Shown here one piece after another: positions 39,231 to 58,256 of a DNA stretch of 64,000 bases. Below the pieces are notes generated by a model. The model did no database searches and was not told the origin of the DNA. It saw nothing but the letters and a program-made list of their open reading frames with translations. The translations under genes were made by a program, and so were the position numbers. Origin of the DNA: Candidatus Omnitrophota bacterium (GTDB lineage: Bacteria; Omnitrophota; Gorgyraeia; 1-14-0-20-64-10); contig JAMWCF010000001.1 in NCBI GenBank assembly GCA_023818695.1, forward strand, positions 83,306 to 147,305. The letters are read 5' to 3'. Each line of letters starts with the position of its first letter. Position 1 is the stretch's first letter.

Positions 39231-40118
39231 ATGCGGCCTTTTAAGCTTATGGAAACAGACCGGCTGCATCAATCCTATCGCTATTGCGAGTGGATCGCTT
39301 ACCATCATTACGAAAACTTCCCGGTTGCCTCGCTGATTCTTCCGAAAGAAAAGCGTTCGCACGTGGCGGCGGTCTACGCTTTCGCCAGATCAGCCGACGA
39401 TTTCGCCGATGAAATCCGCTATCAGGCCGATTCCCTGGAGCTGCTGGAAGCCTGGAGGGCTGCTCTGTGGGCCTGTCAGAACGGAGGGGGAGTCAAGCTG
39501 GTTTCCCACCCGATCTTTATTGCCCTGGCTCACTCGATCACAACCTGCGGTCTGCCGGTGCAGCTTCTCGATGATCTGTTGACCGCTTTCCGCATGGATG
39601 TGACGAAGAGACGGTATGAGAACTGGCAGGAGCTCCTGGACTACTGCCGCTTTTCCGCGAACCCGGTCGGGCGGCTTGTGCTGACGATTTTCGGCTACCA
39701 GGACCCTGAACTCCACCTCCTCTCGGACCATATTTGCACTGGACTGCAGCTGGCCAACCACTGGCAGGATCTGCGGATCGATATGGAAAAAGACCTCCTT
39801 TATATTCCCAGGGATCTGCAGCGCCGGTTTGGTGTCGATGAGGAGGAGTTTCGCGGCGCCATGCAGGGTCGTATGTCGGACCGGTTCCGGGCTCTGATGG
39901 CCGAACTGGTCGACAGGGCGGACGCGCTTTTCAAAGCCGGAGCTGCCTTGCCGGGAAAAGTGGAGGGGCCTCTGCGCCTGGAGTTAAAGCTGACCTTGCT
40001 GGGAGGGCGGGCCGTTCTGGAACGGATCCGCCAGGTCGACTATGATGTTTTCCGGCAGCGCCCGGTTCTTTCCCCGCTGGCGAAATTGAAACTGCTGGGA
40101 CTTGGCCTTGTATCGTGA
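39231..40118 (+). CDS. hpnC: squalene synthase HpnC (hydroxysqualene synthase)
   Basis: SYRYCEWIAYHHYENFPVAS, AVYAFARSADDFADE, ANHWQDLRID. Alternative start at ATG 39249. Confidence 0.85.
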   Translation: MRPFKLMETDRLHQSYRYCEWIAYHHYENFPVASLILPKEKRSHVAAVYAFARSADDFADEIRYQADSLELLEAWRAALWACQNGGGVKLVSHPIFIALAHSITTCGLPVQLLDDLLTAFRMDVTKRRYENWQELLDYCRFSANPVGRLVLTIFGYQDPELHLLSDHICTGLQLANHWQDLRIDMEKDLLYIPRDLQRRFGVDEEEFRGAMQGRMSDRFRALMAELVDRADALFKAGAALPGKVEGPLRLELKLTLLGGRAVLERIRQVDYDVFRQRPVLSPLAKLKLLGLGLVS

Positions 40119-40980
40119 CGATTCCTTCCGTTACTGCGCGTGGTTGACGCGCGTTTCCCGCAGCAATTTCGCGATGGGACTGAAAGTCCTGCCCAGGCCC
40201 CAGAGGGAGGCGATGGAGGTCGTCTATGCTTTCTGCCGGGCGGTGGATGATGTGGTGGATAAACAGGCAGGCAACCCGGTCGTTTTCGACGCGGAGGAGG
40301 CGGGCAGAGAATTGGACCGATGGCGCGGTGAGCTGCATGCCGGTTATCCGACCCACCCGATCGCCGTGGCGCTGACGCAGGTCATCCGGGATTACCGGAT
40401 TCCTCTTTCCTATTTTGAGGATTTGATCGCCGGCTGCCGGATGGATCTGGTCCAGCGCCGTTACGCGACCTTCCAGGAGCTGGAGGTCTACTGCCGGCAT
40501 GTTGCCTCCGTGGTCGGGCTGATCTCCATCCGGGTTTTCGGCTGCCGGCATCAGGCCTCCGAGGATTACGCCGTGAATCTTGGGATCGCACTGCAACTGA
40601 CGAACATCCTGCGAGATCTTAAAGCCGATCTGGCGCGCGGGAGGGTTTATCTGCCGCAGGATGAACTGAAGCGGTTCGGCTACACCGAGAGCGACTTGTT
40701 CTCCTGCCGTTATTCGGAGCCGTTTTTGCGGATGATGTCTTTTCAGTGCGCGAGGGCGCGCGCCTTCTTCCGGAAAGCCCATGAAGCCCTTCAGGCGGCC
40801 GGCGAACAGAGGAAGCTTCTTCCCGCCCAGATGATGGGTGCGGTCTATTCGCAGATCCTCAACCGGATCGAGAAACTCCGGTACGATGTTTTTTCAAGCC
40901 GGATCACCGTGCCGCGAGCCCGGCAGACGGCGACGGCTCTGGTCCTTCTGGTCAATGGCGGGCGCTGGAACTACGCATGA
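40102..40980 (+). CDS. hpnD: presqualene diphosphate synthase HpnD
   Basis: FRYCAWLTRVSRSNFAMG, VVYAFCRAVDDVVD, LQLTNILRDLKADL. Confidence 0.85.
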   Translation: MALYRDDSFRYCAWLTRVSRSNFAMGLKVLPRPQREAMEVVYAFCRAVDDVVDKQAGNPVVFDAEEAGRELDRWRGELHAGYPTHPIAVALTQVIRDYRIPLSYFEDLIAGCRMDLVQRRYATFQELEVYCRHVASVVGLISIRVFGCRHQASEDYAVNLGIALQLTNILRDLKADLARGRVYLPQDELKRFGYTESDLFSCRYSEPFLRMMSFQCARARAFFRKAHEALQAAGEQRKLLPAQMMGAVYSQILNRIEKLRYDVFSSRITVPRARQTATALVLLVNGGRWNYA

Positions 40981-42419
40981 GCAGGCCTCATGTCATCGTC
41001 ATCGGCGGTGGTTTCGCAGGGTTATCGGCCGCCGTTTCCCTGGTGGACGCTGGGGTTCGGGTGACCGTTCTGGAGGCCCGCGTCGGCCTAGGCGGCAGGG
41101 CCCGCTCTTTCACCGATCCGGCCACCGGCGAGTTGGTTGACAATGGTCAGCACCTTCTGATCGGGGGATACCATGAAACCAGGCGGTTCCTCCTGCGGCT
41201 TGGGACGGTGCAGCACTTGCGGTTTCAGCGCCGGCTCCAGGTCCGTTTCGTGGAAAAGGGGGGCCGCTCTTTCACTCTGGACTGTCCTCCGCTGCCGGTT
41301 CCGTGGCACCTGGTTGCCGGTCTGGCGCGGCTCGGATCGCTCTCTCTGCGGGATAAGGCCGGTTTGCGGGCCATGCTCCGCGAGGGGACCCGTCTCCTGA
41401 AAGGGGGAGTTTCCTCCGAAAGGGAGTTGGATGAGGAGACGGTGGAGGGATGGCTGATCCGGCTCGGCCAATCCGCCCGGATCCGGTCCGCTTTCTGGTA
41501 TCCGCTGACAGTGGCGGCTCTCAATGAAGATCCGCGGCGAGCCTCCGCGCTCGGTCTCTGGGCAGTTCTGAAGAGGATGGTTTTTTCCCAGGCGCAGGAC
41601 GCTTGCCTGGGGGTGCCGACCGTGGGGTTGACCGATCTGTACGCCGCTTCCGCCGCCCGCTTGGTCCAGGAGGCGGGCGGTGAGATCCGCTTGAACACCT
41701 CCGTGACCGAGGTGGTTTTGGATGGCGCAGAGGCGCGGGGGATCAGGACCGCCGGCGGCGATCTCCTTTTCGCCGACGCGGTCATCAGCTCGCTGCCTCC
41801 GGGAACGCTGAAGAAGATTCTGCCGGCTTCCTGCCGGGAATCCGACCCGTTCTTCTGCCGTCTTGACCGTTTCAAGACATCGCCGATCGTCTCCATGAAT
41901 CTGTGGCTGGACCGTCCGATCACGCCGGATTGGTTCGTGGGGTTTGTCGGGACGCGGATTCAGTGGCTTTTTAACAAGCCGGCCATTCTGGGAAACGGGA
42001 AAAGCAGCATCAGCTACGCCTCCCTCCTTATCAGCGCGGCGCATGAGTGGGTCGGTTGTTCAAATGAAGCCCTTCTCCAGGTCGCTTTGGAGGACCTCTG
42101 GTCTTGTTTTCCACATGTGCGGGGGGTTCGTCCGGTCAAATTCCAGGTGGTGAGGGAAAGAGAAGCGACTGTTTCGCTCACGCCGGGGATGGAACGGTTC
42201 CGGCTTTCCGCCCGGACTCCATTGGAGGGCTTTTTTTGCGCCGGCGACTGGACCGATACCGGCCTACCGGCTACCATTGAATCGGCTGTGATCAGCGGCC
42301 GTCAGGCTGCGCAGCAGGCGCTGAAATGGCTTGCCTCATCCGCCTGCGGTGGTAAAATACCTAAATTATCCTATGGATCTTCGGTCCTACCTGAAAAACA
42401 GGCAACTTCTGATCAATAA
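40977..42419 (+). CDS. hpnE: hydroxysqualene dehydroxylase HpnE (FAD-dependent amine-oxidase fold)
   Basis: VIVIGGGFAGLSAAVSL..GVRVTVLEARVGLGGRA dinucleotide fold. ATGA overlaps hpnD. Confidence 0.8.
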   Translation: MSRPHVIVIGGGFAGLSAAVSLVDAGVRVTVLEARVGLGGRARSFTDPATGELVDNGQHLLIGGYHETRRFLLRLGTVQHLRFQRRLQVRFVEKGGRSFTLDCPPLPVPWHLVAGLARLGSLSLRDKAGLRAMLREGTRLLKGGVSSERELDEETVEGWLIRLGQSARIRSAFWYPLTVAALNEDPRRASALGLWAVLKRMVFSQAQDACLGVPTVGLTDLYAASAARLVQEAGGEIRLNTSVTEVVLDGAEARGIRTAGGDLLFADAVISSLPPGTLKKILPASCRESDPFFCRLDRFKTSPIVSMNLWLDRPITPDWFVGFVGTRIQWLFNKPAILGNGKSSISYASLLISAAHEWVGCSNEALLQVALEDLWSCFPHVRGVRPVKFQVVREREATVSLTPGMERFRLSARTPLEGFFCAGDWTDTGLPATIESAVISGRQAAQQALKWLASSACGGKIPKLSYGSSVLPEKQATSDQ

Positions 42420-43197
42420 GGCACTTGGGAGATATCTGCCTCCTGCCAGGGAGTACCCCCCTTCTGTCCACCAGGCGATGCGCTACAGCGTGCTGGGAGA
42501 AGGCAAACGGATCCGTCCGATTCTGGCTTTGGCCGCCTGTGAGGCGGTGGGCGGCAGCGTCAAGAAGGCCCTTCCGGCCGCCTGCGCGCTGGAGCTGATT
42601 CACGCCTATTCCCTCGTCCACGATGACCTGCCGGCCATGGACGACGATGATGTCCGACGGGGCAGACCTTCCTGCCACAAGAAATACGGCGAGGCACTGG
42701 GGGTTCTGACCGGCGACGCCTTGCTGACTTACAGCTTTGAGCTGCTGGCCTCCGGCGGCAACGGGGATTCGGCCGTCCGGCTGAAGGTGATCAGGGAGAT
42801 CGCCAAGGCGATCGGCACCCAGGGGATGATCGGCGGGCAGGTGGTGGATATCGAGTCCGGTTCCGGCCGTTCCCGGGGCGCCGTCATGGAGTACATCAAT
42901 TCCAGGAAGACAGGGGCCCTGATCTCCGCTTCCGTCCGGATCGGCGCCCTGATGGGCGGGGCGACACCGAAACAGTACCAGGCCATCTCCTCCTACGGGG
43001 ACAAGGTCGGATTGGTCTTTCAGTTGGTCGACGATCAATTGGACAGGGATGGAGCCGTCCGGCTCTACGGTGTGCGGGCGGTCCGCGAGAGGGCGCAGTC
43101 CCTGACCCGTTCGGCGGTGAATTCCCTTCGGATGTTCGGTTCAAAGGGGCGTTCGCTGGAGGCCCTCGCTTTCTTTATCCTCACACGGAATTCCTAA
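42373..43197 (+). CDS. ispA: farnesyl diphosphate synthase (polyprenyl synthetase)
   Basis: LIHAYSLVHDDLPAMDDDDVRRGRPSCH is nearly identical in pattern to the E. coli IspA FARM. The second motif is FQLVDDQLD. Confidence 0.85.
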   Translation: MDLRSYLKNRQLLINKALGRYLPPAREYPPSVHQAMRYSVLGEGKRIRPILALAACEAVGGSVKKALPAACALELIHAYSLVHDDLPAMDDDDVRRGRPSCHKKYGEALGVLTGDALLTYSFELLASGGNGDSAVRLKVIREIAKAIGTQGMIGGQVVDIESGSGRSRGAVMEYINSRKTGALISASVRIGALMGGATPKQYQAISSYGDKVGLVFQLVDDQLDRDGAVRLYGVRAVRERAQSLTRSAVNSLRMFGSKGRSLEALAFFILTRNS

Positions 43198-43200
43198 ATA

Positions 43201-45114
43201 ATGGAAAAACTGACGGATAAGATCAACAGCCCGGCTGATTTAAGGAAGCTTCCGCAATCGTCCCTGGTTCAGGTCGCCCAGGAAATTCGCCAGATCATCA
43301 TCGATAAGGTTTCCAAAACGGGGGGGCATTTCGGCGGCCCGCTGGGCGCGGTTGACCTGGTGGTGGCTCTCCATTACGTCTTCAACACACCGGAGGACCA
43401 GCTGGTGTGGGACGTCGGTTATCAGGCCTACGCTCACAAGATTCTCACCGGGCGGCGAGATCGTTTCGGAACGCTGCGCCAGCTGGGGGGAATCAGCGGT
43501 TTTCCCCACCGGGAAGAGAGTTCGTACGATCTGTTCACCATCGGGCACGGCGGCACCTCCATTTCGACCGCGCTGGGGCTGGTCCAAGCGCGCGATCACC
43601 AGGGAAAATCCAACAAGGTCGTCGCGGTCATCGGGGACGGTTCTCTTCCGGAGGGGATGGCCCTGGAAGGGTTAAATCACGCCGGCCACTTGAAGAGCGA
43701 CATCCTGGTGGTGCTCAACGACAACAACATGGCGATCGCCCCCGCCGTGGGGGCCCTGACCAACTGCTTCAACCGGATCATCACTGATCCCCTGTACAAC
43801 AGGGTGCGGCGGGAAGCCGAGCGGGCGATGCGGCGGGTTCCACGCCTCGGGTTCCGGATGATCCGTGCCGCCAAGCGGCTGGAGGAATCCCTGAAAAACC
43901 TGCTGGTGCCGGGGATCATTTTTGAAGAGCTCGGGTTCCGCTACTTCGGCCCGGTGGACGGGCACAACATGGACAAGCTCATCAAGATGCTGGGGGAGAT
44001 GAAGAAGCTCCCGGGGCCGAAGTTGCTGCATGTTTTGACCGTCAAGGGCAAGGGGTACTCCTTCGCGGAGAAACACCAGTGGAAGTACCACGGGGTGACG
44101 CCGTTTGACCCGGCGACGGGGGAGTTCCTGAAGAAACCCTCCCCGGAGACCTTCACGCAGCGTTTCGGCAAGACGCTCATCGACATCGCCAAGAAGGATC
44201 CGTCGGTGGTGGCGATCACCGCGGCCATGCCGGACGGCACCGGTCTGGTGGAATACGCGAAGGAGCTACCAAACCAGTTTTACGATGTGGGGATGTGCGA
44301 GCAGCACGCCGTCGGACTGGCCGCCGGATTGGCCCGCGGCGGCATGAAGCCGGTCGCCGCGATTTATTCGACCTTTCTGCAGAGGGGGTTCGACCAGGTA
44401 GTGCATGACGTTTGCATCCAGAATCTGCCGGTGATTTTCGCCATGGACCGGGGCGGCCTGGTGGGGGATGATGGCATCACGCATCACGGTGTGTTCGACA
44501 TCGCCTACTTGTCACCGATTCCGCGCCTCACCCTGATGGCCCCGAAGGACCTGGATGAACTGGAGGCGATGATGCGTTTCGCCATGGAGTCGTCCGGCCC
44601 GATCGGCTACCGGTATCCCCGCGGTTCCATGCTGCGGTTTTATCCCGAGCTGGCCATCCCTAATCCGGGAAAGACCCCTCCGATCATCCTCGGGAGAGCG
44701 GAGAAGATCGTTTCCGGTTCGGACGTGGCGATCATCGCGCTGGGGAGCATGGTTTACCCGGCTCTGGAGGCCCATGTTCTTTTGCAGGATCAGGGGATCT
44801 CCGCCACGGTCGTCAACGCCAGGTTCATCAAGCCGTTTGACGAGGAGTTGTTCGCCTCCCTGCTTCAGGAGCATCGGGCGGTGCTGATCGTCGAGGAGGG
44901 GGTGACGCGGGGCGGTTTCGGCATGGCGGTGATGGAGCGGCTGGAGCCGCTTCGGTCGAACGGATTCCGTTTCCGGGTGATGGGGTTGCCGGACCGGTTC
45001 TTTGAGCATGGCAAAAGGGAGCTTCTCCTGCAGCAGGCCGGTTTAACGACAGACGGCATCGTGGCCGCCGCCAAAGAGCTGTTGCAGGAACGAAGTCCGG
45101 TCTATGTCCGTTGA
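43201..45114 (+). CDS. dxs: 1-deoxy-D-xylulose-5-phosphate synthase
   Basis: GGHFGGPLGAVDLVVALHYVF, VIGDGSLPEGMALEGLNHAG, full length of 637 aa. Confidence 0.95.
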   Translation: MEKLTDKINSPADLRKLPQSSLVQVAQEIRQIIIDKVSKTGGHFGGPLGAVDLVVALHYVFNTPEDQLVWDVGYQAYAHKILTGRRDRFGTLRQLGGISGFPHREESSYDLFTIGHGGTSISTALGLVQARDHQGKSNKVVAVIGDGSLPEGMALEGLNHAGHLKSDILVVLNDNNMAIAPAVGALTNCFNRIITDPLYNRVRREAERAMRRVPRLGFRMIRAAKRLEESLKNLLVPGIIFEELGFRYFGPVDGHNMDKLIKMLGEMKKLPGPKLLHVLTVKGKGYSFAEKHQWKYHGVTPFDPATGEFLKKPSPETFTQRFGKTLIDIAKKDPSVVAITAAMPDGTGLVEYAKELPNQFYDVGMCEQHAVGLAAGLARGGMKPVAAIYSTFLQRGFDQVVHDVCIQNLPVIFAMDRGGLVGDDGITHHGVFDIAYLSPIPRLTLMAPKDLDELEAMMRFAMESSGPIGYRYPRGSMLRFYPELAIPNPGKTPPIILGRAEKIVSGSDVAIIALGSMVYPALEAHVLLQDQGISATVVNARFIKPFDEELFASLLQEHRAVLIVEEGVTRGGFGMAVMERLEPLRSNGFRFRVMGLPDRFFEHGKRELLLQQAGLTTDGIVAAAKELLQERSPVYVR

Positions 45115-47074
45115 CATATCCGCCCGACCCTTGAAAGGATCCCCGGTGTCCGTCTCGGTGAGCCCTTCCGTGCTGGAGGCGCTGGAGAGCGCGATCGGGA
45201 AAACCTCCGCCCTCCTCTGCAGGCAGCAGGACCCCGACGGTTTCTGGGTCGGCGAACTGCAGGCCGACACGACGCTGGAATCGGACACCATCAAGTTGCG
45301 GCACCTGCTGGACAGGGTTGACCGCCGGAAACAGGAAAAGCTGGTCTGGACAATCCTCAAGAACGAGCTTCCGGACGGAGGGTGGCCGATTTACGCGGGC
45401 GGCCCCCCTGAAATCAACGCGACCGTCAAGGCCTACGCGGCCCTGAAGCTGGCCGGCACTCCGGATGACGATCCGGTCCTCAAGCGCAACAGGCAGGTTA
45501 TTCTTCGCTTGGGCGGGCTGGAAAGGATCAACAGCTTTGAGAAGACCTACCTGGCCCTGTTAGGCGCCTATCCATGGAGCCAGGTCCCAGTTCTTCCTCC
45601 CGAGCTTATTTTTCTGCCCTCCTGGTTTTACTTCAACATCTATGAGGTTTCCTATTGGTCCCGCACCATCCTGATTCCTCTGGCCGTGATGCACGCGACG
45701 AAACCTTGTTCCCCCTCTGCGCGACTCTGCTTGGATGAGCTGTGGGTGAATCCCAGGCTGAAGCGGGCGACCATCACGAACTTCCAGAAGGGAGGGGCTT
45801 TTTGGAGGGTTTTCTTCCTCTTCGCCAACCGGATTTTGAGGATCCACGAGAGTTTGCCGTTTAAGCCGCTGCGGGCAAAGGCGCTGCGAGCGTGTGACCG
45901 CTGGATCAATGAGCGGCTCGTCGAAACAGACGGTTTGGGGGCGATCTTTCCGGCGATGATGAACGCCATTTTCGCCTTGAAGGGGTTGGGCTACCGGGAT
46001 GGAGACCCCCTCTATGAGAAGCAGATCAAGGAGATGGAGCGGCTCGAAGTTCCGGATGAGGAGCTCGGTCTGAAAATCCAGCCCTGTTTTTCGCCGGTCT
46101 GGGACACGGCGCTGGCGATGTACGCATTGGGAAGGACCAAAGCCGCTTCCGTGGCAGGACCCCTGCGGCGGGCGGTTGACTGGCTCCTTGCGCGGGAGAT
46201 CCGCCAGTGGGGGGACTGGGTTGTTAAGAATCCCCGTGCGAAACCGGGTGGCTGGGCTTTCGAGTTCAAGAATCCTTTTTACCCGGACGTCGATGACACG
46301 GCGCAGGTTCTTCTGGGGCTCCATGAAGTTTATCCCGTCGGGCGTCAGCCGCAGGACGTCAGGGGGGCGTTCGAAAGAGGGCTCGAGTGGATTTTGAGCA
46401 TGCAGAACAGGGACGGGGGGTGGAGCTCTTTCGATAAGAATAATAACTGCCTTCCCTTAACCCATTTCCCGTTCGCGGACCACAACGCCATGCTGGATCC
46501 ATCCGCTTGCGACATCACCGGCAGGATCCTGGAGCTTTTGAGCGCCATCGGCGTGCCGAAGACCCATCCGGCGGTCCAGCGGGCGAGAGCTTTTCTGCTT
46601 GAACGGCAGGAGGTGGATGGCAGCTGGTTCGGGCGCTGGGGGGTCAACTACATCTATGGCACATGGCTGGCCCTCCGGGGTCTTCGCGCCGTCGGGGAAC
46701 CTATGGATTCTTTCCGGTATCAGCGGGCCGGCCGGTGGCTGATCAGCCGGCAGAACCCGGACGGCGGCTGGGGTGAAAGCTGCCGCTCGTACGACGACCC
46801 CGGCGTGAAAGGGCAGGGGCCTTCCACCCCCTCGCAGACTTCATGGGCTTTGATGGCCCTCATGAGCTGCGGGTTGGTGGCGGAACCCTCTTTTCAGAGG
46901 GGGCTGGAGTACCTCCTGAACCATCAAAAACCGGATGGCGACTGGCAGGAGGAATGGTTCACGGGAACCGGTTTCCCGCGGGTCTTTTATCTGCGCTATC
47001 ACATGTACAGAATCTATTTCCCGCTTCTGGCTCTGACCGAAGCCCGGGATATCTTGAAAAGGACCGAGGGATAA
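45104..47074 (+). CDS. shc: squalene-hopene cyclase
   Basis: Catalytic DVDDTA, multiple QW repeats ([28 protein letters not shown]), [16 protein letters not shown]. Confidence 0.95.
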
Positions 47075-50555: not shown

Positions 50556-51218
50556 ATGCAGCCGATCAACCGTCGTCTTTCGAGGCATGTCACGCCACTG
50601 TTGATCGCTTGCGGCCTGAATCCTACCCAGGTCACGCTGATAGGGTTGGCGGCAGGCATGATCGCCGCTTTGTATTTTTACCAGGGGGATCCCCGCTCCT
50701 GGGTGATTGGCGCCATCTGGTTCCAGGCGGCTTACCTGCTGGACAATTGCGACGGAGAGGTCGCCCGGCTCACGAACCGGACAAGCGGATTTGGCAGCTG
50801 GATCGATACCATCACCGACTGCCTGATCCACATCGGGTTTTTCGGCGGGCTGGGATGCGGGATCAGCCGTTATACCGGCAATCCCGTGTGGTTTCGGTTG
50901 GGGCTGCTTGCTTGCGGCGGCGTCCTGCTGTCGTATCTGACCTTCGTGGCCGAGCAGGTGCAGATCAGGGGGCGGGCGGCCTGGATCCATCCGGATCCTC
51001 CCCAGGAAGAGGCCCTGAAGTCTTTCTGGAAGCAGCTCCGGAAGCTGTTCCGGGAGGATTTCTCTTTCGTCGTATTGGGTTCGGCGTTGGTCCAGCAGAT
51101 GGCCTGGCTTTTATGGAGCGGCATCGCGGGGTCCTTCCTCATTGGGTTCGCCAGCCTCTTGTCGATTACGGTCCGCAGCGGCCGGTTGTTCCAGCATTAC
51201 ACGAACAGACGCGTTTGA
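50556..51218 (+). CDS. CDP-alcohol phosphatidyltransferase family membrane protein
   Basis: DNCDGEVARLTNRTSGFGSWIDTITD (50742..50819) fits D-x2-DG-x2-AR-x8-G-x3-D-x3-D exactly. Multiple TM segments. Confidence 0.8.
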   Translation: MQPINRRLSRHVTPLLIACGLNPTQVTLIGLAAGMIAALYFYQGDPRSWVIGAIWFQAAYLLDNCDGEVARLTNRTSGFGSWIDTITDCLIHIGFFGGLGCGISRYTGNPVWFRLGLLACGGVLLSYLTFVAEQVQIRGRAAWIHPDPPQEEALKSFWKQLRKLFREDFSFVVLGSALVQQMAWLLWSGIAGSFLIGFASLLSITVRSGRLFQHYTNRRV

Positions 51219-51225: not shown

Positions 51226-52185
51226 ATGAAAAAGATGAGATGGCTGGGCGTCCTTTTTGGCACCGCGCTTTTTGTTGGCATCCTGTGCCAGTCCGATCTG
51301 TCCTTGGTCTGGGATCAGGTCCGTTCCTTGAAACCGTGGCGCTTCGGCATCATCGTTCTTTTTTACGGCGTCATTTTCTGGCTGGATACGTTGGGATGGA
51401 AGTTCGCCATGAACCACTCGGCGGGAGGCCTTGTCCGCTGGGACCGGCTTTTCAGGGCCCGTCTGGCGGGGGAAGCGTTGAATTACGTCACGCCGGCGGC
51501 CGCGCTGGGAGGGGAGCCGGTAAAAGCGTATATCTTGTCGAAAAAGTACGGGGTCCCGCTTTCAGACGGAATGGCCTCCGTGGTGGTCGCCAAGACCACG
51601 CTTGCCGTCAGCATGCTGTTGTTCGTTCTGACCGGCGTGGTTTTGACCTTGTTGACCCAGCCGATTCCTCCCGTGGTTTCATCCTTGGTCTGGACCACCT
51701 TTTCCGTTCTGGCCCTGCTGATGGGCCTTTTCATGGCGGTTCAGTTTTCACGGCCGTTTCAGCGTGCGGCCGGCTTCGCCCAGCGGTTTCTGCCGGGCTG
51801 GATCTCCTCTTTTCTGGAGAAAGCCAAGGAATGGGACCGGGCGATCCTCCACTACTACCGGCTTTCTCCGGAACGGTTTTTTTATTCCCTCACGTTTCAT
51901 TTCCTGGGGTGGGTGGCCGGGGTCATCGAAGTTTACCTGATTTTCCACTTTCTACAGGCCCCGGTCGGGTGGTCGACGGCCTGGTCGGTTGAGGCGTTAT
52001 GGGTCCTCTTGCGCAGCGGGGCCTTCATGATTCCTGCCACTCTGGGGGCCAGTGAGGGTTTTCTCCTGCTGATCTGCGTCGGCATGGGACTTGGAGCTGT
52101 CAGCGGTTTGGCCCTCGCTTTGGTCCGGCGGGCGAGAGAGCTTCTGTGGATGGGATTGGGTCTTGTGGAGTTCTCAAGGGGATGA
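51226..52185 (+). CDS. HpnL-like / UPF0104 (lysylphosphatidylglycerol-synthase TM region) flippase-like membrane protein
   Basis: ~8 TM segments, with RLAGEALNYVTPAAALGGEPVKAY typical of the family. Its position next to hpnA matches other hopanoid clusters. Confidence 0.6.
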   Translation: MKKMRWLGVLFGTALFVGILCQSDLSLVWDQVRSLKPWRFGIIVLFYGVIFWLDTLGWKFAMNHSAGGLVRWDRLFRARLAGEALNYVTPAAALGGEPVKAYILSKKYGVPLSDGMASVVVAKTTLAVSMLLFVLTGVVLTLLTQPIPPVVSSLVWTTFSVLALLMGLFMAVQFSRPFQRAAGFAQRFLPGWISSFLEKAKEWDRAILHYYRLSPERFFYSLTFHFLGWVAGVIEVYLIFHFLQAPVGWSTAWSVEALWVLLRSGAFMIPATLGASEGFLLLICVGMGLGAVSGLALALVRRARELLWMGLGLVEFSRG

Positions 52186-53183
52186 GCCGGGACGTCGTTT
52201 TTGTAACCGGGGCGACCGGTTTCGTGGGCAGCCACGTCGTTCTGAAGCTGCTGGAGAGGGGCAAACGGGTTCGGGTCTTTGCCAGGCGCAGCAGCAACCT
52301 GAAGAACCTCAAGGGGCTGGACGTCGAAATGGTTTACGGCGACTTGACCGACGCCAAATCCATACGGGAAGCCATGCGCGGGTGCCGGCAGGTGTATCAT
52401 GTTGCCGCGGATTACCGGCTGTGGGCCCCGCAGCCGGCCGCCATCTATCAAAACAACGTTCAGGGCACCAGAAACGTTCTGGAAGCGGCTTCGCAAGAAA
52501 AAGTGGAGAAGATCGTTTATACCTCCACCGTAGGGGCTCTGGGATTTTCGCAGGATGGTTCCCCGTCGACGGAGCAGACCGCTGTCACCCTGGAGGACAT
52601 GGTGGGCCATTATAAGCGCTCCAAGTTTCTGGCGGAGCAGGAAGCGATGGCCGCCGCCAAGGCAGGGTTTCCGGTTGTGATCGTTAATCCCTCCACGCCG
52701 GTCGGAGCGATGGATATCAAGCCGACTCCTACTGGACAGATGATCGTGGATTTTTTGAACGGGCGGATGCCGGCCTATGTGGAGACCGGTCTGAACCTGA
52801 TCGATGTGGAGGATGTGGCGGAGGGGCATCTGCTGGCGATGGAGACGGGGCGAGTCGGCGAAAAGTACATCCTGGGGAACGAGAATCTTTCTCTGAAGGA
52901 GATCCTGGAGATGTTGAGTCGGATCAGCGGGCTGGCGTCGCCGAAAATCCGCCTGCCAAGGGGGATCGCCCTGGGGATCGCCTGTGTGAGCACCGGATGG
53001 GGGCGTCTCACCGGCCGCACTCCCCGCGTGCCGCTGGAGGCGGTCCGGATGTCGAAAAAGAAGATGTATTTCGATTCCTCCAAAGCGGTGAAGCATCTAG
53101 GGCTTCCCCAGCGTCCCGTTCAGGATGCCCTTCAGAAGGCCGTTGTCTGGTTCCGGCAGAACGGCTACGTTCGAAGGAATTGA
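52182..53183 (+). CDS. hpnA: hopanoid-associated sugar epimerase HpnA (NAD-dependent epimerase/dehydratase)
   Basis: VFVTGATGFVGSHVV...VRVFARRSSNLKNLKGLDVEMVYGDLTD and YKRSK (YxxxK). ATGA overlaps the upstream gene. Confidence 0.8.
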   Translation: MSRDVVFVTGATGFVGSHVVLKLLERGKRVRVFARRSSNLKNLKGLDVEMVYGDLTDAKSIREAMRGCRQVYHVAADYRLWAPQPAAIYQNNVQGTRNVLEAASQEKVEKIVYTSTVGALGFSQDGSPSTEQTAVTLEDMVGHYKRSKFLAEQEAMAAAKAGFPVVIVNPSTPVGAMDIKPTPTGQMIVDFLNGRMPAYVETGLNLIDVEDVAEGHLLAMETGRVGEKYILGNENLSLKEILEMLSRISGLASPKIRLPRGIALGIACVSTGWGRLTGRTPRVPLEAVRMSKKKMYFDSSKAVKHLGLPQRPVQDALQKAVVWFRQNGYVRRN

Positions 53184-53185: not shown

Positions 53186-53848
53186 ATGCCCCGCACGGTT
53201 TCCGTGCTGGTCGTGACGGCTGTCCGTCAGGAGATGGATCGATCCGTCATTGGGGCGGACCCCGCGGTCAGGGTTTTGGTCACCGGCGTAGGACAGCGGA
53301 ACGTCCACCGCTCGCTTGGCCCCTTTTTGAGGGAGAATGCCGTCCGGCTCCTCATCAGCGCCGGTTTTTCCGGCGGCGTTCGGCCCGGCTACAGGGTCGG
53401 GGACCTCGTAATGGCCTCGGAGGTCCTGGATGAGCACTCAGCGGGGAGGTGGAAGCCGTCGAAGCCGCCGGAATCGTGGAACGGCCGCATTGCGAGCGGC
53501 CCTTTCATCACCGCCTCCTCGGTGGTAAGGAGTTCCGCTTCCAAGAAGGAGATCGGCATGCGGACCGCCGCCGCGGCGGTGGACATGGAAAGCGCGGCTG
53601 TGGCTGCCCTCGCCGAGGCGGCAGGGGTTCCCTGGGTCGCGATCCGGGCCATCCTGGATCCCATGGAGGCGGATCTGATGGTCGGATCTCTTCCGGAGGC
53701 GTGCGCGCTGATGATGCGTCCCTCTCGGTGGGCGGATCTGCGCCGTTTCCTTGCGTCCGTCAAGGTTGCCAGGCGTTCTTTGGCTGAAGGAATTCGGTTC
53801 CTTATGGATGTCAATTCAGAGGTGCTTCAGGAACAGAGATCAAATTAA
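53186..53848 (+). CDS. hpnG: hopanoid-associated phosphorylase HpnG (PNP/UDP phosphorylase family)
   Basis: LLISAGFSGG, AAAVDMESAAVAALA, WVAIRAILDP. Confidence 0.75.
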   Translation: MPRTVSVLVVTAVRQEMDRSVIGADPAVRVLVTGVGQRNVHRSLGPFLRENAVRLLISAGFSGGVRPGYRVGDLVMASEVLDEHSAGRWKPSKPPESWNGRIASGPFITASSVVRSSASKKEIGMRTAAAAVDMESAAVAALAEAAGVPWVAIRAILDPMEADLMVGSLPEACALMMRPSRWADLRRFLASVKVARRSLAEGIRFLMDVNSEVLQEQRSN

Positions 53849-53861
53849 GGAGAAAACGGCA

Positions 53862-54866
53862 ATGGAGTTAGACAAGGTTGCGTCCCTTATTGAATCGGAA
53901 TACCGGTTTCTGACTCGAGTTCATGACCGGTGGAGTTTGACGGCTGGCCCGCAGGACATGGAGCTGGTTGCTCATGCTTTGCGGGTGATCCTCCATATGG
54001 GCAAGGCGGGTTCTTCTCTGAACGAATACCGCGCTTTGATCAAGACGCAGCATGAAGACGGCGGATGGGGCCGCGAGTCCACGGAAAAAGAATCGGCCGC
54101 CTGGGTTTCCGCTTTCTGCGGTCTGATGCTGATCCGCGCCAATGCCGTCCTTCAGAACGCGGAGCTCGAAAGGTCGATCTGGAAATCGATCGATTATTTC
54201 CTCAAGGACCAGAAAGGGGATGGCCGCTGGGTTGACAGCGAGTGGGGCGATCTGGACACGACGTCCCATCCGGTCAGCTTTTTCAACGTCGTCCTGGCGT
54301 TGGGCACCCCCGCCATGAAGGACGCCGTCAGGACCTCCTGGAGGAAGGGACTGCGCTTCATCATCGACGGTCAGTCCGAGGATGGGGGATGGTACGATCC
54401 GGTTTTTCAGCCCTCGGGTGTGGAGACTACCGCCCATCTCGTGCAGGATTCCGTGATCGCCTCTTTGGTCCTGCCGGAGGGGTTGCCGGTGCGGCCGGTC
54501 TGCGAGAAGGGGTTGAACTGGATCCTCGAGCACCAGGCGCAGGACGGTTCGTGGGATGACCACAACGTGGACCATTCGATGGATTGCACCCGCTCGATCC
54601 TCCTGATTTCCCGCATGCTGAAGGCGGAGGAAAAAGCGCGGCCGGCGATCGACAAAGCGATCGACTGGATCGTGAAGGTCAAGAACGAGAATGGCTGGCC
54701 AGATTTCCCGGGAATGGAGACCAACCTGGAGAGAACCTGCGACGGACTGGATGTCCTGTTGAAATACCAGGCCTGGCGCCAGCCGGATTCCCTGGAGGTT
54801 GTCAGGAGATGGGGCTATGCCCCCGGCAACCCGACCTTCATCCAGGGGATCGAGGCGAGGGTCTAG
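53862..54866 (+). CDS. prenyltransferase/squalene-cyclase repeat (alpha/alpha-toroid) protein, 334 aa
   Basis: Repeated QW-like units HEDGGWGRE, QKGDGRWVD, QSEDGGWYD, QAQDGSWDD, KNENGWPDF. The DxDD position reads GDLDTT (degenerate). Confidence 0.6.
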   Translation: MELDKVASLIESEYRFLTRVHDRWSLTAGPQDMELVAHALRVILHMGKAGSSLNEYRALIKTQHEDGGWGRESTEKESAAWVSAFCGLMLIRANAVLQNAELERSIWKSIDYFLKDQKGDGRWVDSEWGDLDTTSHPVSFFNVVLALGTPAMKDAVRTSWRKGLRFIIDGQSEDGGWYDPVFQPSGVETTAHLVQDSVIASLVLPEGLPVRPVCEKGLNWILEHQAQDGSWDDHNVDHSMDCTRSILLISRMLKAEEKARPAIDKAIDWIVKVKNENGWPDFPGMETNLERTCDGLDVLLKYQAWRQPDSLEVVRRWGYAPGNPTFIQGIEARV

Positions 54867-54871
54867 GAAAG

Positions 54872-55237
54872 ATGAGCGGCCAGCGGGTTCGGGTGGCTTC
54901 GGCGGCGGACGTGCCGCCGGGCGGTTCCTGCCTGGTGCAGGTTGATGGGAAGGACGTCGCTCTTTTCAACGTCGACGGCCGCTTTTTCGCCGTCGGCAAC
55001 AGGTGCCCCCATCGATCGGGTCCGCTGGTCCGCGGCCGGGTCGAAAAGATAGAGGAGAAGTGCGCCGTACGCTGTCCCCTGCATGGCTGGCTGTTCGATC
55101 TGGAATCCGGCAGGTGCCTGACGCGGGCGAGTGCCACCGTCCCGACATTTCCGGTTTTATGCGAGGAGGGGCAGGTTCTGCTGGGAGCGCAGGAGGGAGC
55201 ATACGCCGGTCCTAGCACGCTGGTGCCCGGTTCCTGA
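54872..55237 (+). CDS. small Rieske [2Fe-2S] domain protein (NirD-like)
   Basis: CPHRSGPL ... CPLHGW is the Rieske CxH/CxxH pair. 121 aa. Confidence 0.8.
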   Translation: MSGQRVRVASAADVPPGGSCLVQVDGKDVALFNVDGRFFAVGNRCPHRSGPLVRGRVEKIEEKCAVRCPLHGWLFDLESGRCLTRASATVPTFPVLCEEGQVLLGAQEGAYAGPSTLVPGS

Positions 55238-56631
55238 TGACCGCCGTCATTCTGGCCGCCGGCGTGGGCAAGAGAATGGGCGCCGGGGCGCTCCCCAAAA
55301 CGCTTTCCGTGGTCGCCGGCCAATCCCTTTTGAGAAGAATGCTGGAGTCCCTTCAGGCCGCCGGTGTGCGGCGGGTTGTCTTGGTGGTCGGATACCGGAA
55401 AGAGGAGGTTGTGGAGGAGGCCAGGCGTTACGCCGGCCGGATGGAGCTTTCGGTCATTGAGAACCCAAGGTTCCGGGAAGGAGCGATCCTCTCCCTGTGG
55501 TCCGCCCGGGATGTTTTTTCAGACGACCTGCTGATTATGGACTCGGATGTTTTCTTCCCCCCCGCTTTCATACAGAAGCTGGTTGCCTCCGCCCACCGAA
55601 ACTGCATCCTTGTCGACGGGACATCGCCGGATACGGGGGAGGAACAGATTGTTCTGGGCATCGGGGAAAGGGTTTTCCACATCACGAAGCGTCCCACCGA
55701 TCAACAGAAAAGCGATTGGATTCCTTTCGGGGAGTCGGTCGGGTTTCTGAAGCTGGAGGAGGCGGCGGCTGGCACCCTGAAGGTCTTGCTGGATGAGAAG
55801 GTGCAGGCGGGGATCGTGAATATAGAGCATGAACAAGTTTACCCGGAACTCTTCAAACGGTTTCACGTCGGTTTCGAAAAGGTGGACGGCTTCGCCTGGA
55901 CGGAGATCGACACGCCGGAGGACCTGGTCAGGGCAAAAGAGGAAATCTATCCCAGGTGGAACCGGTCGGTGTGCCTGAATCGCCGGCTGTCCGGCGCCCT
56001 GCTGCCTTTTGTGCTGAAGCTGCCTCTTCGCCCGAACCACTGGACATCCCTTTCGCTTCTGTCCGGTCTGGCGGCCCTGCTTCAGTTCAGCCGGGGGGAC
56101 TACGCGTCGGGGATCTGGGGGGCTTTCCTTTTCCAGCTTTTCTATCTCATCGACAACTGGGATGGAGATGTCGCCCGGGCGAAAGGGTTGATGTCGACCT
56201 GGGGCGGCTGGTTCGACGTCGCAGCCGACGGGATTGTTCAGCTTTTATTGCCGCTGGCGCTGGCGGCGGGGTTGGTTCAGCGGGGATGGGACATGTCCGT
56301 TTACGCGTGGGGATGGGTTGGAACGGCCGGGATCGCCCTTTCTTTCGCCGCGACGAGTTTTGCCAAGACAAGAGGGTTCGGCCCTTCCGTTTATGAAGAC
56401 CGAGGCCGAACCGGTGCTGTTCGGCCGGGGAGATGGAGGGAGTCGCTTCGGGCGAATCTGACGAACGAGAATTTTTCCCTCGTCGTCATGGCGCTGTTTC
56501 TGCTGGACTGGAGGTTTCTTTTCCTCGTTCTGTCCGCTCTAGGATCAAATTTTTTCTGGATCAGCTTTCTCTGGAAGGAAAGGCGCCGGTTATTCCGGCG
56601 GCCTCACAGTTTCGCCCACGCCCGCCTGTAA
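55237..56631 (+). CDS. bifunctional nucleotidyltransferase / CDP-alcohol phosphatidyltransferase fusion
   Basis: N-terminus AVILAAGVGKRMG (sugar/alcohol-phosphate nucleotidyltransferase). The C-terminal TM domain has DNWDGDVARAKGLMSTWGGWFDVAADG (56152..56232), a perfect CDP-OH-PT motif. Confidence 0.8.
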   Translation: MTAVILAAGVGKRMGAGALPKTLSVVAGQSLLRRMLESLQAAGVRRVVLVVGYRKEEVVEEARRYAGRMELSVIENPRFREGAILSLWSARDVFSDDLLIMDSDVFFPPAFIQKLVASAHRNCILVDGTSPDTGEEQIVLGIGERVFHITKRPTDQQKSDWIPFGESVGFLKLEEAAAGTLKVLLDEKVQAGIVNIEHEQVYPELFKRFHVGFEKVDGFAWTEIDTPEDLVRAKEEIYPRWNRSVCLNRRLSGALLPFVLKLPLRPNHWTSLSLLSGLAALLQFSRGDYASGIWGAFLFQLFYLIDNWDGDVARAKGLMSTWGGWFDVAADGIVQLLLPLALAAGLVQRGWDMSVYAWGWVGTAGIALSFAATSFAKTRGFGPSVYEDRGRTGAVRPGRWRESLRANLTNENFSLVVMALFLLDWRFLFLVLSALGSNFFWISFLWKERRRLFRRPHSFAHARL

Positions 56632-58256
56632 TCCTCGAAGGTATCGACCTCGAGCCATCCTTTGTATGTTTCGATGGCCTTAACCGGGTGGCCCTGATCG
56701 ATGACCGCCTGCAGGAGATCACATAAGGAGGCCTGCCTGAAAGAGGGGGCTTCGTAGTAAGGTCCGGAGGTGGAGGCCCCTTTCGCGTAGGCCTCCTTCA
56801 ACCACTGGACGCCCAGGGGCGAGAAGTAAGCCAGACCGATGAACTCCCCGGTCACCTGCCGCTTATCCAGTTTTTGGCCGATTTTCCGGATATGGAGCGG
56901 TTCCGGAGAAGGAAGGAACCGGTGGCTGGTGACCGGCCGCTCTTCCGTGGTGACGAGATCAGCCCCATCCGGGGATTGTCCTTCCGTTCGGTACAGGTCG
57001 TACCAGGCCCGGTCGACGACCAACCCCACGTCGGTCTCGGAGTCCAGAAGCCGGTCCAGCAGGGCCCGGTCGAAAAGAATGTCGCCGTACATGACCAGGA
57101 GCCGTCCCTTCAGGGCGGCTTCGGCGCTGAAGAGGGAAGCGGCGATCCCGGTTGACTCGTAGTGGGGGTTTTCAAAAAGCTGGATGTTCGGGATTTTCAC
57201 CGTTTCGGCCCTGTAGCCGGCGCAGACGCTGATCTGGTGGACCCCCGCCGAATGGAGAAGATGCATCTGCCTTTCCAGGATGGAACGCCCCTTGATCTCC
57301 AGCAGCGTCTTGGGTTTGTCCTCGTTCAAGGGCAGGAGCTGTTTCTCGAATCCCGCGGCCAGGATGACGGCGCCAGGCGCCTCCTGCTCGGAGGGAATGA
57401 ATTCGGACTCCCGGGCCTGGAACTCCGGGACGCCAACCAGGTCATAGACCTCCTGCAGGGAAGCGATGTTCCCGTCCAGCACCTCGGCCCGCCCTTCCTG
57501 ATGCAATATTTTCATCTGGGCGTTCATGGCCGCCACGGCGGCCCGCAGTGCGTGGTTGGCGAAGATGATGATTTTAAAGCCGGCCTGGGAGAGCTCTTCA
57601 ACGCTGGCCGATGGAAACATGGTGGGGACGACCACCAGCGGCACCCTCCCCTCCCAACTCTTGGCGAATTCCAGCACCTCTTGGGATGATTTGGCCTTGG
57701 AGTGGATCAGGATCGCGTCGGCGCCAGCCTTGGTGTAGGAATCGGCTCTGGTCATCGCCTCCTGGAGGCCCAGTCCGGCGATGAGCGCCTCGGTCCGCGC
57801 GATCACGACGAAATCGGAGGTCGTCGCGGCCGATTTGGCGGCGCGGACCCGGCCGGCCATCTCCTCCACGGAGACCAGGTCATGCCGTCCGCCGTAAAGA
57901 GAACAGCGTTTGGGGAAGGTAGCGTCTTCGATGGAGATGCCGGCGATGCCGGCGGAGGAAAACTCCTCGGCGGTGCGCATCACGTTGATGGCATTGCCGT
58001 AGCCGTTATCACAGTCCGCGATCACCGGAATCCGGACGGCCGTGTTGATGTTTTTGGCGACCTCCAGCACCTCGGTCATTGTCAGAACGTTCATGTCCGG
58101 CATCGATTTCTGGGCTGCGGAAAGGCCGAAACTGGAGACCCACACGGCGTCGAAGCCGTTGCGCTCCACGATTCTGGCGCTGATGGCATCGTGCGCTCCG
58201 GCTAAGACGATCGGCCGGTTCTGCGCTAAAAGGGATCGGAAATGGCCTGCCTTCAT
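56604..58256 (-). CDS. PEP mutase-like (ICL/PEPM superfamily) domain fused to a C-terminal LicC/PntC-like nucleotidyltransferase
   Basis: AHDAISARIV, DCDNGYGN, ARTEALIAGLGL..AGADAILIHSK and ANHALRA are collinear with PEP mutase. The gating-loop motif is EDATFPKRCS instead of EDKx5NS. The C-terminal half has AVILAAGFEKQ...YGDILF. Start taken at ATG 58256 (RBS ggagaa). Confidence 0.7.
   Translation of the reverse strand: MKAGHFRSLLAQNRPIVLAGAHDAISARIVERNGFDAVWVSSFGLSAAQKSMPDMNVLTMTEVLEVAKNINTAVRIPVIADCDNGYGNAINVMRTAEEFSSAGIAGISIEDATFPKRCSLYGGRHDLVSVEEMAGRVRAAKSAATTSDFVVIARTEALIAGLGLQEAMTRADSYTKAGADAILIHSKAKSSQEVLEFAKSWEGRVPLVVVPTMFPSASVEELSQAGFKIIIFANHALRAAVAAMNAQMKILHQEGRAEVLDGNIASLQEVYDLVGVPEFQARESEFIPSEQEAPGAVILAAGFEKQLLPLNEDKPKTLLEIKGRSILERQMHLLHSAGVHQISVCAGYRAETVKIPNIQLFENPHYESTGIAASLFSAEAALKGRLLVMYGDILFDRALLDRLLDSETDVGLVVDRAWYDLYRTEGQSPDGADLVTTEERPVTSHRFLPSPEPLHIRKIGQKLDKRQVTGEFIGLAYFSPLGVQWLKEAYAKGASTSGPYYEAPSFRQASLCDLLQAVIDQGHPVKAIETYKGWLEVDTFEDYRRAWAKL

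Follow-up and report, generated by a model that had tools for sequence, protein, structure and literature searches.

The hopanoid gene block and the genes within it

This report concerns a block of 17 consecutive plus-strand genes (39231-56631) in a 64,000-nucleotide stretch of DNA from a Candidatus Omnitrophota bacterium (contig JAMWCF010000001.1; the whole stretch is called the window below), where genes for hopanoid biosynthesis surround genes for relatives of enzymes that make 2-aminoethylphosphonate (AEP) and that attach head groups to lipids. Hopanoids, which are among the main membrane lipids of bacteria, serve as key geological biomarkers. A first-pass annotation of the sequence had described the block as tightly packed, and the list of open reading frames (ORFs) and their translations bears this out: every junction is an overlap or a gap of at most 13 nt, and the ATGA or TGATG overlaps placed at 40977, 48201, 48698, 49267, 52182 and 55237 are all present. 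As also described there, a minus-strand gene converges on the end of the block, overlapping it by 28 nt, and has ispH as its divergent neighbour. This convergent gene encodes a phosphoenolpyruvate (PEP) mutase-like (PepM-like) domain fused to a nucleotidyltransferase (NT).

Coordinates within the block are those of the best-supported start codons. Gene prediction carried out independently on Logan assemblies of this organism gave identical starts, except for the stand-alone cytidine diphosphate (CDP)-alcohol phosphotransferase, which is shorter there (186 aa). Families were assigned using NCBIfam/TIGRFAM equivalog cut-offs and Pfam gathering scores; the first-pass family labels match these profile searches, the weaker ones being those of the HpnG-like and HpnL-like proteins and of the three AEP-pathway enzymes. 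The features are listed below with their bit scores.

39173..39201, plus strand: promoter-like site TTGACG-17-TAAAAT directly 5' of hpnC (10/12 matches; a consensus match only)
39231..40118, plus: hpnC, squalene synthase HpnC (TIGR03464, 315 bits against a cut-off of 250)
40108..40980, plus: hpnD, presqualene diphosphate synthase (TIGR03465, 279.6 against 278.6; 11-nt overlap with hpnC; start from the Logan gene call)
40977..42419, plus: hpnE, hydroxysqualene dehydroxylase (TIGR03467, 415 bits against 283; ATGA junction)
42373..43197, plus: ispA, farnesyl diphosphate synthase (NF045485, 279 bits against 275; 47-nt overlap with hpnE)
43201..45114, plus: dxs, DXP synthase (TIGR00204, 769 bits; 3-nt gap after ispA)
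45104..47074, plus: shc, squalene-hopene cyclase, SHC (TIGR01507, 668 bits against 431; DVDDTA; 11-nt overlap with dxs)
47077..48201, plus: hpnH, adenosylhopane synthase (TIGR03470, 535 bits against 225; CNLECAGC; 2-nt gap after shc)
48201..48701, plus: ppdA, alpha part of a split thiamine pyrophosphate (TPP) decarboxylase, phosphonopyruvate/sulfopyruvate decarboxylase-like (TIGR03297, 107 bits; TIGR03845, 102 bits; neither score reaches its cut-off; TGATG junction)
48698..49270, plus: ppdB, beta part of the split TPP decarboxylase (TIGR03297, 175 bits; TIGR03846, 168 bits; GDG...N intact; ATGA junction)
49267..50544, plus: AEP-transaminase-like class V aminotransferase (TIGR03301, 351.2 bits against 360.8; ATGA junction)
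50556..51218, plus: stand-alone CDP-alcohol phosphotransferase, PT1 (PF01066, 43.7 bits against 22; 11-nt gap; alternative start 50658)
51226..52185, plus: HpnL-like membrane protein with an MprF-type flippase-like domain (PF03706, 114.6 bits; TIGR03476, 160 against 195.65; 7-nt gap)
52182..53183, plus: hpnA, hopanoid-associated NAD-dependent epimerase/dehydratase (TIGR03466, 500 bits against 368; ATGA junction)
53186..53848, plus: hpnG-like nucleosidase/phosphorylase (TIGR03468, 92 bits against 187; PF01048, 69 bits; 2-nt gap after hpnA)
53862..54866, plus: cyclase-repeat protein (cycrep), a small single-barrel protein of terpene-cyclase/prenyltransferase fold (PF13243, 45 bits; 13-nt gap after the hpnG-like gene)
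54872..55237, plus: NirD-like Rieske [2Fe-2S] protein (PF13806, 71 bits; PF00355, 67 bits; 5-nt gap after cycrep)
55237..56631, plus: PntC-like cytidylyltransferase fused to a CDP-alcohol phosphotransferase, the NT-PT fusion (PF12804 and PF01066; TGATG junction)
56604..58256, minus: PEP-mutase-like domain fused to NTP_transf_3 (PF13714, 210 bits; TIGR02320, 273.1 against 319.55)
58330..59553, plus: ispH, long type (NF009911, 546 bits against 440)

HpnC, HpnD, HpnE, the farnesyl diphosphate synthase, Dxs, SHC, HpnH, HpnA and IspH all reach their NCBIfam cut-offs, and the motifs previously reported for SHC (DVDDTA) and HpnH (CNLECAGC) are both found in the translations. The HpnG-like and HpnL-like proteins score below their cut-offs and are divergent relatives; the hpnG-like gene has the position of a PNP_UDP_1 gene in a related Rokubacteria locus (L082). 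Among the larger ORFs in the rest of the window we saw no homologue of hpnI, hpnJ, hpnK, hpnO, hpnN, hpnP or hpnR, in line with the earlier remark that the first four are absent, and the genes called downstream on L083 include no hopanoid tailoring gene either.

Upstream of the block lie genes for pyruvate dehydrogenase E1/E2/E3, a PDZ/TPR protein and a YfiH-like protein. A 275-aa ORF just 5' of hpnC (38331-39158, minus strand) matches no family and is probably spurious, because it overlaps the well-supported YfiH/Cu-oxidase_4 gene (38178-38900, plus strand). Scanning for internal terminators and promoters was uninformative: the block has 32 terminator-like signals, all weak, against 23.4 ± 5.1 in shuffled background, and is thus near background.

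Enzymes of the embedded module

The two genes directly after hpnH encode a split decarboxylase related to phosphonopyruvate decarboxylase (Ppd), with 35-42% (alpha) and 42-46% (beta) identity to Ppd encoded next to canonical PEP mutases (Ppm). Its scores on the sulfopyruvate decarboxylase models are about equal to those on TIGR03297. The aminotransferase that follows finds AEP transaminases as all five of its best matches in the Protein Data Bank (PDB), and keeps the residues aligned to the 'NKC' lysine and the 'CFRIG' arginine of 1m32, which we take to be the catalytic Lys194 and the phosphonate ligand Arg340. Its N-terminus (49267-49450) is a Lys/Arg/Pro-rich extension of ~60 aa (MKRRHRVAHRYPKPKRRRLRLRRR...PAPKEVPPPAPAP), which lies outside the tblastn matches in related loci. 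The equal scores on the ComDE models prompted us to consider a sulfonate (taurine-type) pathway. We rejected this as the principal explanation because AEP transaminases are the best homologues of the aminotransferase and R159 and H190 are conserved in the PepM-like domain, and also because a sulfonate can be neither activated by a nucleotidyltransferase nor transferred by a CDP-alcohol phosphotransferase.

The last gene of the block joins a cytidylyltransferase to a CDP-alcohol phosphotransferase. The best PDB match of its NT domain is the AEP cytidylyltransferase Tde1415 (PntC), with 59 bits, whereas IPCT and LicC score 31 and 29. PntC has the PF12804 fold and a G-x-G-x-R loop, and its residues E104 and E196 (Tde1415) contact the AEP amine (PMC6697681). 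In the window protein the loop reads LAAGVGKRM, E196 corresponds to E199, and E104 corresponds to D102, an Asp as in LicC. Both phosphotransferases exceed the PF01066 gathering score (43.7 bits for PT1 and 29.5 for the fusion) and possess the full catalytic motif D-x2-D-G-x2-A-R-x8-G-x3-D-x3-D (DNCDGEVAR-x8-GSWIDTITD in PT1, DNWDGDVAR-x8-GGWFDVAAD in the fusion). AF2299 is the best PDB match of PT1, and both phosphotransferase domains are nearest to AF2299/DIPPS-type enzymes. The fusion scores 127 bits on the IPCT/DIPPS model, against a cut-off of 580. An inositol-phosphate head group, by analogy with IPCT/DIPPS, is weakened as an explanation for the window because the NT domain is nearer to PntC and the window has no inositol-phosphate synthase gene; for the Rokubacteria loci, which carry one, it stays a candidate.

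Between the hpnG-like gene and the NT-PT fusion lie the genes for cycrep and the Rieske protein. Both had been listed at first pass, where it was missed that their conservation alongside the PepM-like fusion is tighter than that of any other partner. An AlphaFold2 model of cycrep (pLDDT 94) is a single (alpha/alpha)6 barrel; its nearest Foldseek matches (TM 0.6-0.66, 14-19% identity) are prenyltransferase beta subunits and class II terpene cyclases, some of the latter likewise with one barrel. This predicted fold argues for an isoprenoid ligand. The family is small (309 matches) and highly conserved, with invariant DLDTTSHP, ETTAH, VDHTMDC and ERTCDG. We considered whether the invariant DLDTT might be a DxDD-type acid motif; in alignments to SHC models, however, it is out of register with the SHC motif, and no class II DxDD was found in register. 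In the related loci examined the Rieske gene always follows cycrep. The pair also occurs without a PepM-like gene (L085), and in another Omnitrophota locus it accompanies a phosphotransferase, an NT, the PepM-like fusion, an AMP-binding enzyme and a class III aminotransferase, with no Ppd.

The PepM-like fusion protein is identical to NCBI MCM8811554.1, encoded on a 697-kb contig. The 575-aa version of the ORF (start 58331) has no exact match; what is actually encoded is a 550-aa protein that begins at 58256. Among solved structures the best homologue of its PepM-like domain is 5unc (273 bits), a true PEP mutase, and we aligned the domain to 5unc, to a second PEP mutase of known structure, 1m1b, and to phosphonopyruvate hydrolase. 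In the 1m1b alignment (Mytilus numbering) the domain keeps W44, S46, D58, D85, D87, E114, K120, S123, R159 and H190, G47 being replaced by Ser, and in an alignment of its homologues D58, D85, D87, E114, R159, H190, S46, K120 and S123 are invariant. In the Mytilus enzyme these are presumably the metal ligands (D58, D85, D87, E114) and the substrate or phosphoryl ligands (R159, H190, S46, K120, S123), of which we take R159 and H190 to bind the phosphoryl group. The domain, however, has EDATFPKRCS in place of EDKxxxxxNS, such that K116 is replaced by Ala and N122 by Cys. N122, the Asn of this motif, is catalytically important. EDKxxxxxNS is reportedly the PEP mutase criterion of Yu et al. in 2013.

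The substitution is not peculiar to the window protein. All 120 of its closest homologues (51-100% identical, all fusions of ~555 aa) share ED[NAS]xFPK[RKQ]CS. Among the 150 best representatives of the superfamily neighbourhood at 50% identity, 88 are canonical, 17 are Cys variants and 15 have EDN..NS. In a crude neighbour-joining tree built from 148 superfamily representatives, most Cys variants group with the EDN..NS proteins, apart from EDK..NS; since two Cys sequences fall elsewhere in this tree, we do not claim that the variants are monophyletic. The NT domain fused to the PepM-like domain resembles that of canonical Ppm-NT fusions. Cys variants are nevertheless not the general form of such fusions, as the nearest NT-fused family is canonical (EDK..NS) in 116 of 120 members, in glycan-type clusters. 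Members of this canonical family adjoin Ppd, iron-dependent alcohol dehydrogenase and glycosyltransferase genes (L088) or Ppd alone (L089). The Cys variant probably acts on PEP/phosphonopyruvate. Phosphonate surveys retain only EDKX5NS sequences (PMC6697681, PMC8942020), and the Cys-variant clade has therefore been left out of them.

Linkage to hopanoid genes in related loci

To see which genes accompany the variant fusion in relatives, we scanned one genome per species, which yielded 403 relatives, and analysed the best 80 loci. Neighbours were counted by tblastn with the window proteins (at least 50% coverage) within 10 kb of the variant gene; as many contigs are short, all counts are lower bounds. 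The numbers of loci, out of 80, are as follows.

Ppd and/or AEP aminotransferase: 39
NT and/or phosphotransferase: 39
Rieske protein: 34
cycrep: 31
hpnA: 29
HpnL-like: 24
AEP aminotransferase: 23
hpnH: 17
shc: 14
hpnC/D: 12

At least one hopanoid gene of any kind lies within this distance in 30 of the 80 loci, and shc, hpnH or hpnC/D in 19. For a single-copy gene in a genome of ~4 Mb we estimate that roughly 0.4 loci would be expected by chance. At first pass it had been allowed that the co-localisation might be unique to this genome, which is not the case: linkage to hopanoid genes recurs in several phyla (Omnitrophota, Rokubacteria/Methylomirabilota, Nitrospinota and Nitrospirota) and with differing gene orders. 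Adjacency of the variant gene to Ppd parallels that in the nearest canonical EDK..NS Ppm-NT fusions, which are also beside Ppd.

The Omnitrophota loci have the gene order of the window and keep ispH as a neighbour. In Rokubacteria/Methylomirabilota one strand carries hpnD, hpnA, hpnG, hpnH and a cruF-like gene, and the other carries shc, mlaEFDC, the variant fusion, Ppd, sometimes the aminotransferase, NT, phosphotransferase, HpnL-like, inositol-1-phosphate synthase and HpnN. The Nitrospirota have the full module, often beside ispA, hpnA and a cruF-like gene, and sometimes with no hopanoid gene nearby. In Binatia (17 loci) and a few others the variant fusion, cycrep and Rieske genes form a stand-alone trio amid unrelated genes.

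Several features of these loci are recorded here in their own right. The framing by mlaEFDC, inositol-1-phosphate synthase and an HpnN-type exporter is seen in L082 (7294-9999 and 16932-20750) and also in L019, L044, L045, L047, L050, L062, L072 and L079. A homologue of CruF-like carotenoid hydratase (PF04240), absent from the window, is found beside hpnH/shc or hpnA in 21 related loci (for example L082 4436-5251, L036 ~9727 and L017 ~18801) and could act on hopanoids rather than carotenoids. The record titles of L035, L056, L060, L063 and L050 ('Enterobacteriaceae', 'Candidatus Nitrosocosmicus', 'Verrucomicrobiia') are at odds with their Binatia- or Rokubacteria-type gene content, and these records are probably mislabelled or misbinned.

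A proposed pathway, its alternatives and known systems

From the identities and order of the genes, the way their linkage is conserved and the characterised homologues nearest to them, we infer the following route. Dxs and IspA, with IspH next door, would supply isoprenoid precursors within one transcription unit; HpnC, HpnD and HpnE would lead to squalene, which SHC would cyclise, and HpnH, the HpnG-like protein and HpnA would extend the product to a C35 polyol-type hopanoid. The PEP-mutase-like/NT fusion would convert PEP to phosphonopyruvate, the split decarboxylase would turn this into phosphonoacetaldehyde and pull the unfavourable mutase reaction forward, and the class V aminotransferase would yield AEP. 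The PntC-like domain of the NT-PT fusion would activate AEP as cytidine monophosphate (CMP)-AEP, from which the fused and/or the stand-alone CDP-alcohol phosphotransferase would transfer the phosphonoethylamine group to a hydroxyl of a lipid; translocation of the product may fall to the HpnL-like, MprF-type membrane protein. The favoured acceptor would be a hopanoid polyol, at the terminal hydroxyl of its side chain; with such an acceptor, cycrep could be an isoprenoid-binding partner.

The chemical logic from Ppd through AEP transaminase and cytidylyltransferase to CDP-alcohol phosphotransferase had been set out in the first-pass annotation, and it holds. That annotation had also called the AEP pathway complete, which stands only in part: Ppd, the aminotransferase and one cytidylyltransferase domain are nearest to phosphonate enzymes, but the pathway is not demonstrably complete, because the PepM-like domain fails both the accepted PEP-mutase motif and the family cut-off. 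The interleaving it described is likewise right in that the module lies between hpnH and hpnA/hpnG. The HpnL-like gene, however, had been counted with the hopanoid genes; as such a gene belongs to a published type of predicted phosphonolipid cluster (PMC5987646), the phosphonate block is larger than was drawn and is a known module.

We assign a probability of roughly 0.42 to the reading that these genes constitute a phosphonyl-tailoring head-group module, placing AEP on a lipid, with a hopanoid polyol as the favoured one, and that this module is embedded in, and co-transcribed with, the hopanoid pathway. Hopanoid as the acceptor, considered by itself, is a tentative assignment that falls a little short of even odds. 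A further-reaching proposal, which on balance we think unlikely, is that a widespread Cys-for-Asn clade of PEP-mutase-like enzymes, fused to a cytidylyltransferase-like domain and passed over by every motif-filtered phosphonate survey, provides the C-P bonds of a novel class of lipids, AEP-headed hopanoids or other cyclic isoprenoids, in Omnitrophota, Rokubacteria, Nitrospirota, Nitrospinota and Binatia; the AEP-hopanoid would in that case, and with the same reserve, be built by a CMP-AEP-dependent CDP-alcohol phosphotransferase together with a dedicated terpene-cyclase-fold/Rieske pair.

A number of observations weigh against the phosphonate-hopanoid reading. Besides lacking EDKxxxxxNS, the PepM-like domain scores under the TIGR02320 equivalog cut-off, as does its Rokubacteria homologue (276.3), and its variant Cys occupies exactly the position of the Cys in the K[KR]CGH motif of isocitrate/methylisocitrate lyases. 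The halves of the decarboxylase (107 and 175 bits) compare with a TIGR03297 cut-off of 312.5, which a fused homologue (285.5) does not reach either, and the aminotransferase is narrowly below its own cut-off; the homologues in a Rokubacteria locus are likewise under the equivalog cut-offs. None of these genes is named as a phosphonate gene in the NCBI annotation. No Ppd gene was found near the variant gene in the Binatia loci or in the Omnitrophota locus L086, many Nitrospirota/Auribacterota loci that carry the module lack any hopanoid gene within 10 kb, and the aminotransferase is missing from many Rokubacteria loci, which allows for a head group other than AEP in some cases. In the literature searched, no phosphorus-containing hopanoid turned up, and published clusters of this module type, those of Nostoc and Burkholderia, are predicted to make diacylglycerol phosphonolipids (PMC5987646).

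The last point leads to the strongest of the alternatives, which we regard as unlikely without dismissing it: the product could be an ordinary AEP-diacylglycerol glycerophosphonolipid, and hopanoids a separate product, co-transcribed only because the two act in remodelling one membrane. The classical substrates of CDP-alcohol phosphotransferases are diacylglycerol or CDP-diacylglycerol, and in seven Nitrospirota and Auribacterota loci (L014, L018, L032, L038, L051, L065 and L074) the module occurs without a hopanoid gene within 10 kb. The parts of the module, including the HpnL-like protein, also match the published predicted phosphonolipid cluster (PMC5987646). Against such a product stand the recurrent linkage to shc, hpnH and hpnA in several phyla and in differing gene orders, and the position of the window module, which is interleaved between hpnH and hpnA/hpnG rather than beside the hopanoid genes. 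The terpene-cyclase-fold protein is, moreover, the most constant partner (31 of 80 loci), and the Rokubacteria version of the module is flanked by HpnN and Mla genes. It is improbable, in our estimate, that the Cys variant is not a PEP mutase at all and that the head group has no C-P bond, being a phosphate-ester amino alcohol or an inositol phosphate; the decarboxylase and aminotransferase would then, no more probably, act on another 3-substituted pyruvate. A head group of this kind is conceivable because the motif test fails, with Cys for the catalytic Asn, and because the aminotransferase and Ppd are not universal partners. It is also in keeping with the scores of all three AEP enzymes below their equivalog cut-offs, the near-equal result of the decarboxylase on sulfopyruvate decarboxylase models, the resemblance of the NT-PT fusion to IPCT/DIPPS, the inositol-1-phosphate synthase gene in 10 Rokubacteria-type loci, and the Omnitrophota locus where an AMP-binding enzyme and a class III aminotransferase replace Ppd. 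The other active-site residues of PEP mutase are kept, however, including the presumed phosphoryl-binding R159 and H190; for the decarboxylase, the aminotransferase and the NT domain alike, the best characterised relatives are phosphonate enzymes; the window has no inositol-phosphate synthase gene; and the chemistry noted above bars a sulfonate from the nucleotidyltransferase and phosphotransferase steps.

The stand-alone trio of the Binatia fits none of the hopanoid phosphonolipid, the diacylglycerol phosphonolipid or the head group without a C-P bond. With its unrelated flanks in 17 Binatia loci and a few others, it speaks for an alternative in which the PepM-like fusion would work mainly with cycrep and the Rieske protein on a non-hopanoid isoprenoid, giving another 'phosphonoterpene', and its position in the hopanoid operon would reflect shared precursor supply. 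The small, highly conserved cycrep family, with its invariant Asp/His/Cys-rich pattern, also suggests an enzyme rather than a passive binder. Against this stand the occurrence of cycrep and Rieske genes without a PepM-like gene (L085) and the lack of a class II DxDD motif in register in cycrep, and no reaction can be proposed from sequence alone; we consider this improbable, and the least likely of the alternatives.

If the phosphonate-hopanoid reading is right, a phosphonate-bearing hopanoid would be a new class of lipid, resistant to phospholipases, which would tie hopanoid production to the phosphonate pool and would escape standard bacteriohopanepolyol analyses. If the Cys variants are active mutases, the capacity for phosphonate biosynthesis in soils, groundwater and sediments is underestimated. 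The reading also provides a concrete hypothesis for HpnL-type proteins and for the small terpene-cyclase-fold family; in a 2025 survey (PMC12583986) HpnA and HpnL still figure among the proteins without an assigned function. The literature searched held nothing useful on the hopanoid lipids of nitrifiers and NC10.

Elsewhere in the window, a group I intron (Rfam RF00028, 64 bits; 2828-3036 within 2803-3085, plus strand) splits an apparent tRNA gene in its anticodon loop, between the flanks TCCCCTGTAGCTCAGTTGGTAGAGCAGGTGACT... and ...AATCACCGGGTCCGAGGTTCGAGCCCTCGCGGGGGAGCCA; ARAGORN reported no tRNA in the window. A cyclic di-GMP-I riboswitch (RF01051, 58 bits; 60330-60433, plus strand) lies upstream of a 220-aa ORF (60749-61411, plus strand). 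A 1556-aa ORF (11882-16552, minus strand) combines ACR_tran (AcrB-type resistance-nodulation-division pump, 994 bits) with OEP (164 bits), followed by HlyD-type and MarR genes, and is either an unusual fusion or the result of a missed stop or frameshift. Sulfate-activation genes (26609-29331, plus strand; CysD-like and a CysN/APS-kinase fusion) are located ~10 kb 5' of the operon, and no link to it was found.

Among the closest described systems is the predicted phosphonolipid cluster of lichen-associated Nostoc and Burkholderia, which consists of CDP-alcohol phosphatidyltransferase, NTP transferase, pepM, ppd, AEP transaminase and hpnL (PMC5987646, Fig. 7, after Yu et al. 2013). The parts list is the same, down to the hpnL-type membrane protein. 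The window module differs in sitting inside a hopanoid operon, in having its cytidylyltransferase fused to a second phosphotransferase, in lacking a 2-oxoglutarate/Fe(II) oxygenase and in adding the terpene-cyclase-fold and Rieske proteins. Its PepM-like enzyme also lacks EDKxxxxxNS, the Nostoc/Burkholderia cluster being compared here by its description and not by its PepM sequence. The idea of a phosphonate-hopanoid, which the first-pass annotation had offered, is partly supported by our results, and it had been floated before for 'phosphonate-terpene' hybrids, in which pepM/ppd/AEP transaminase-type genes adjoin squalene synthase and squalene-hopene cyclase genes: in Nitrosococcus (PMC7285500; gene cluster family 731, 'possible phosphonoterpene', PMC8942020), Roseomonas (PMC8776678) and Pandoraea (PMC5987411). 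Those reports are one-line remarks that identify no product and, in contrast to the present one, contain no analysis of gene order, transferases or cross-phylum conservation. The Nitrosococcus genes passed the EDKX5NS filter and are therefore canonical Ppm, whereas the window enzyme would fail it.

The Pnt phosphonyl tailoring pathway comprises a Ppm-NT fusion and the AEP cytidylyltransferase PntC (Rice et al. 2019, PMC6697681; PDB 6pd1). The window resembles it in the fusion of a Ppm-like domain to a PF12804 domain, in a separate PntC-like domain, in the adjacent Ppd and AEP transaminase genes and in the proposed activation with CMP before transfer. Its known examples, however, like the nearest canonical relatives of the fusion (L088), are directed to glycans, with LicD-type transferases and glycosyltransferases, whereas the window has membrane CDP-alcohol phosphotransferases in a lipid/hopanoid context. 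The NT-PT fusion shares with IPCT/DIPPS (PDB 4mnd) the order of a cytidylyltransferase followed by a CDP-alcohol phosphotransferase, an arrangement in which the second domain uses as its donor what the first one makes; it differs in its score far below the IPCT/DIPPS cut-off, in the nearer relation of its NT domain to PntC and in the lack of an inositol-phosphate synthase gene in the window. The general phosphonate-hopanoid or phosphonate-terpene idea has already been put forward for canonical clusters. What is new is the Cys-variant PepM clade with its terpene-cyclase-fold and Rieske partners, as well as the fusion of a PntC-like domain to a phosphotransferase and how widely the linkage to hopanoid genes extends.

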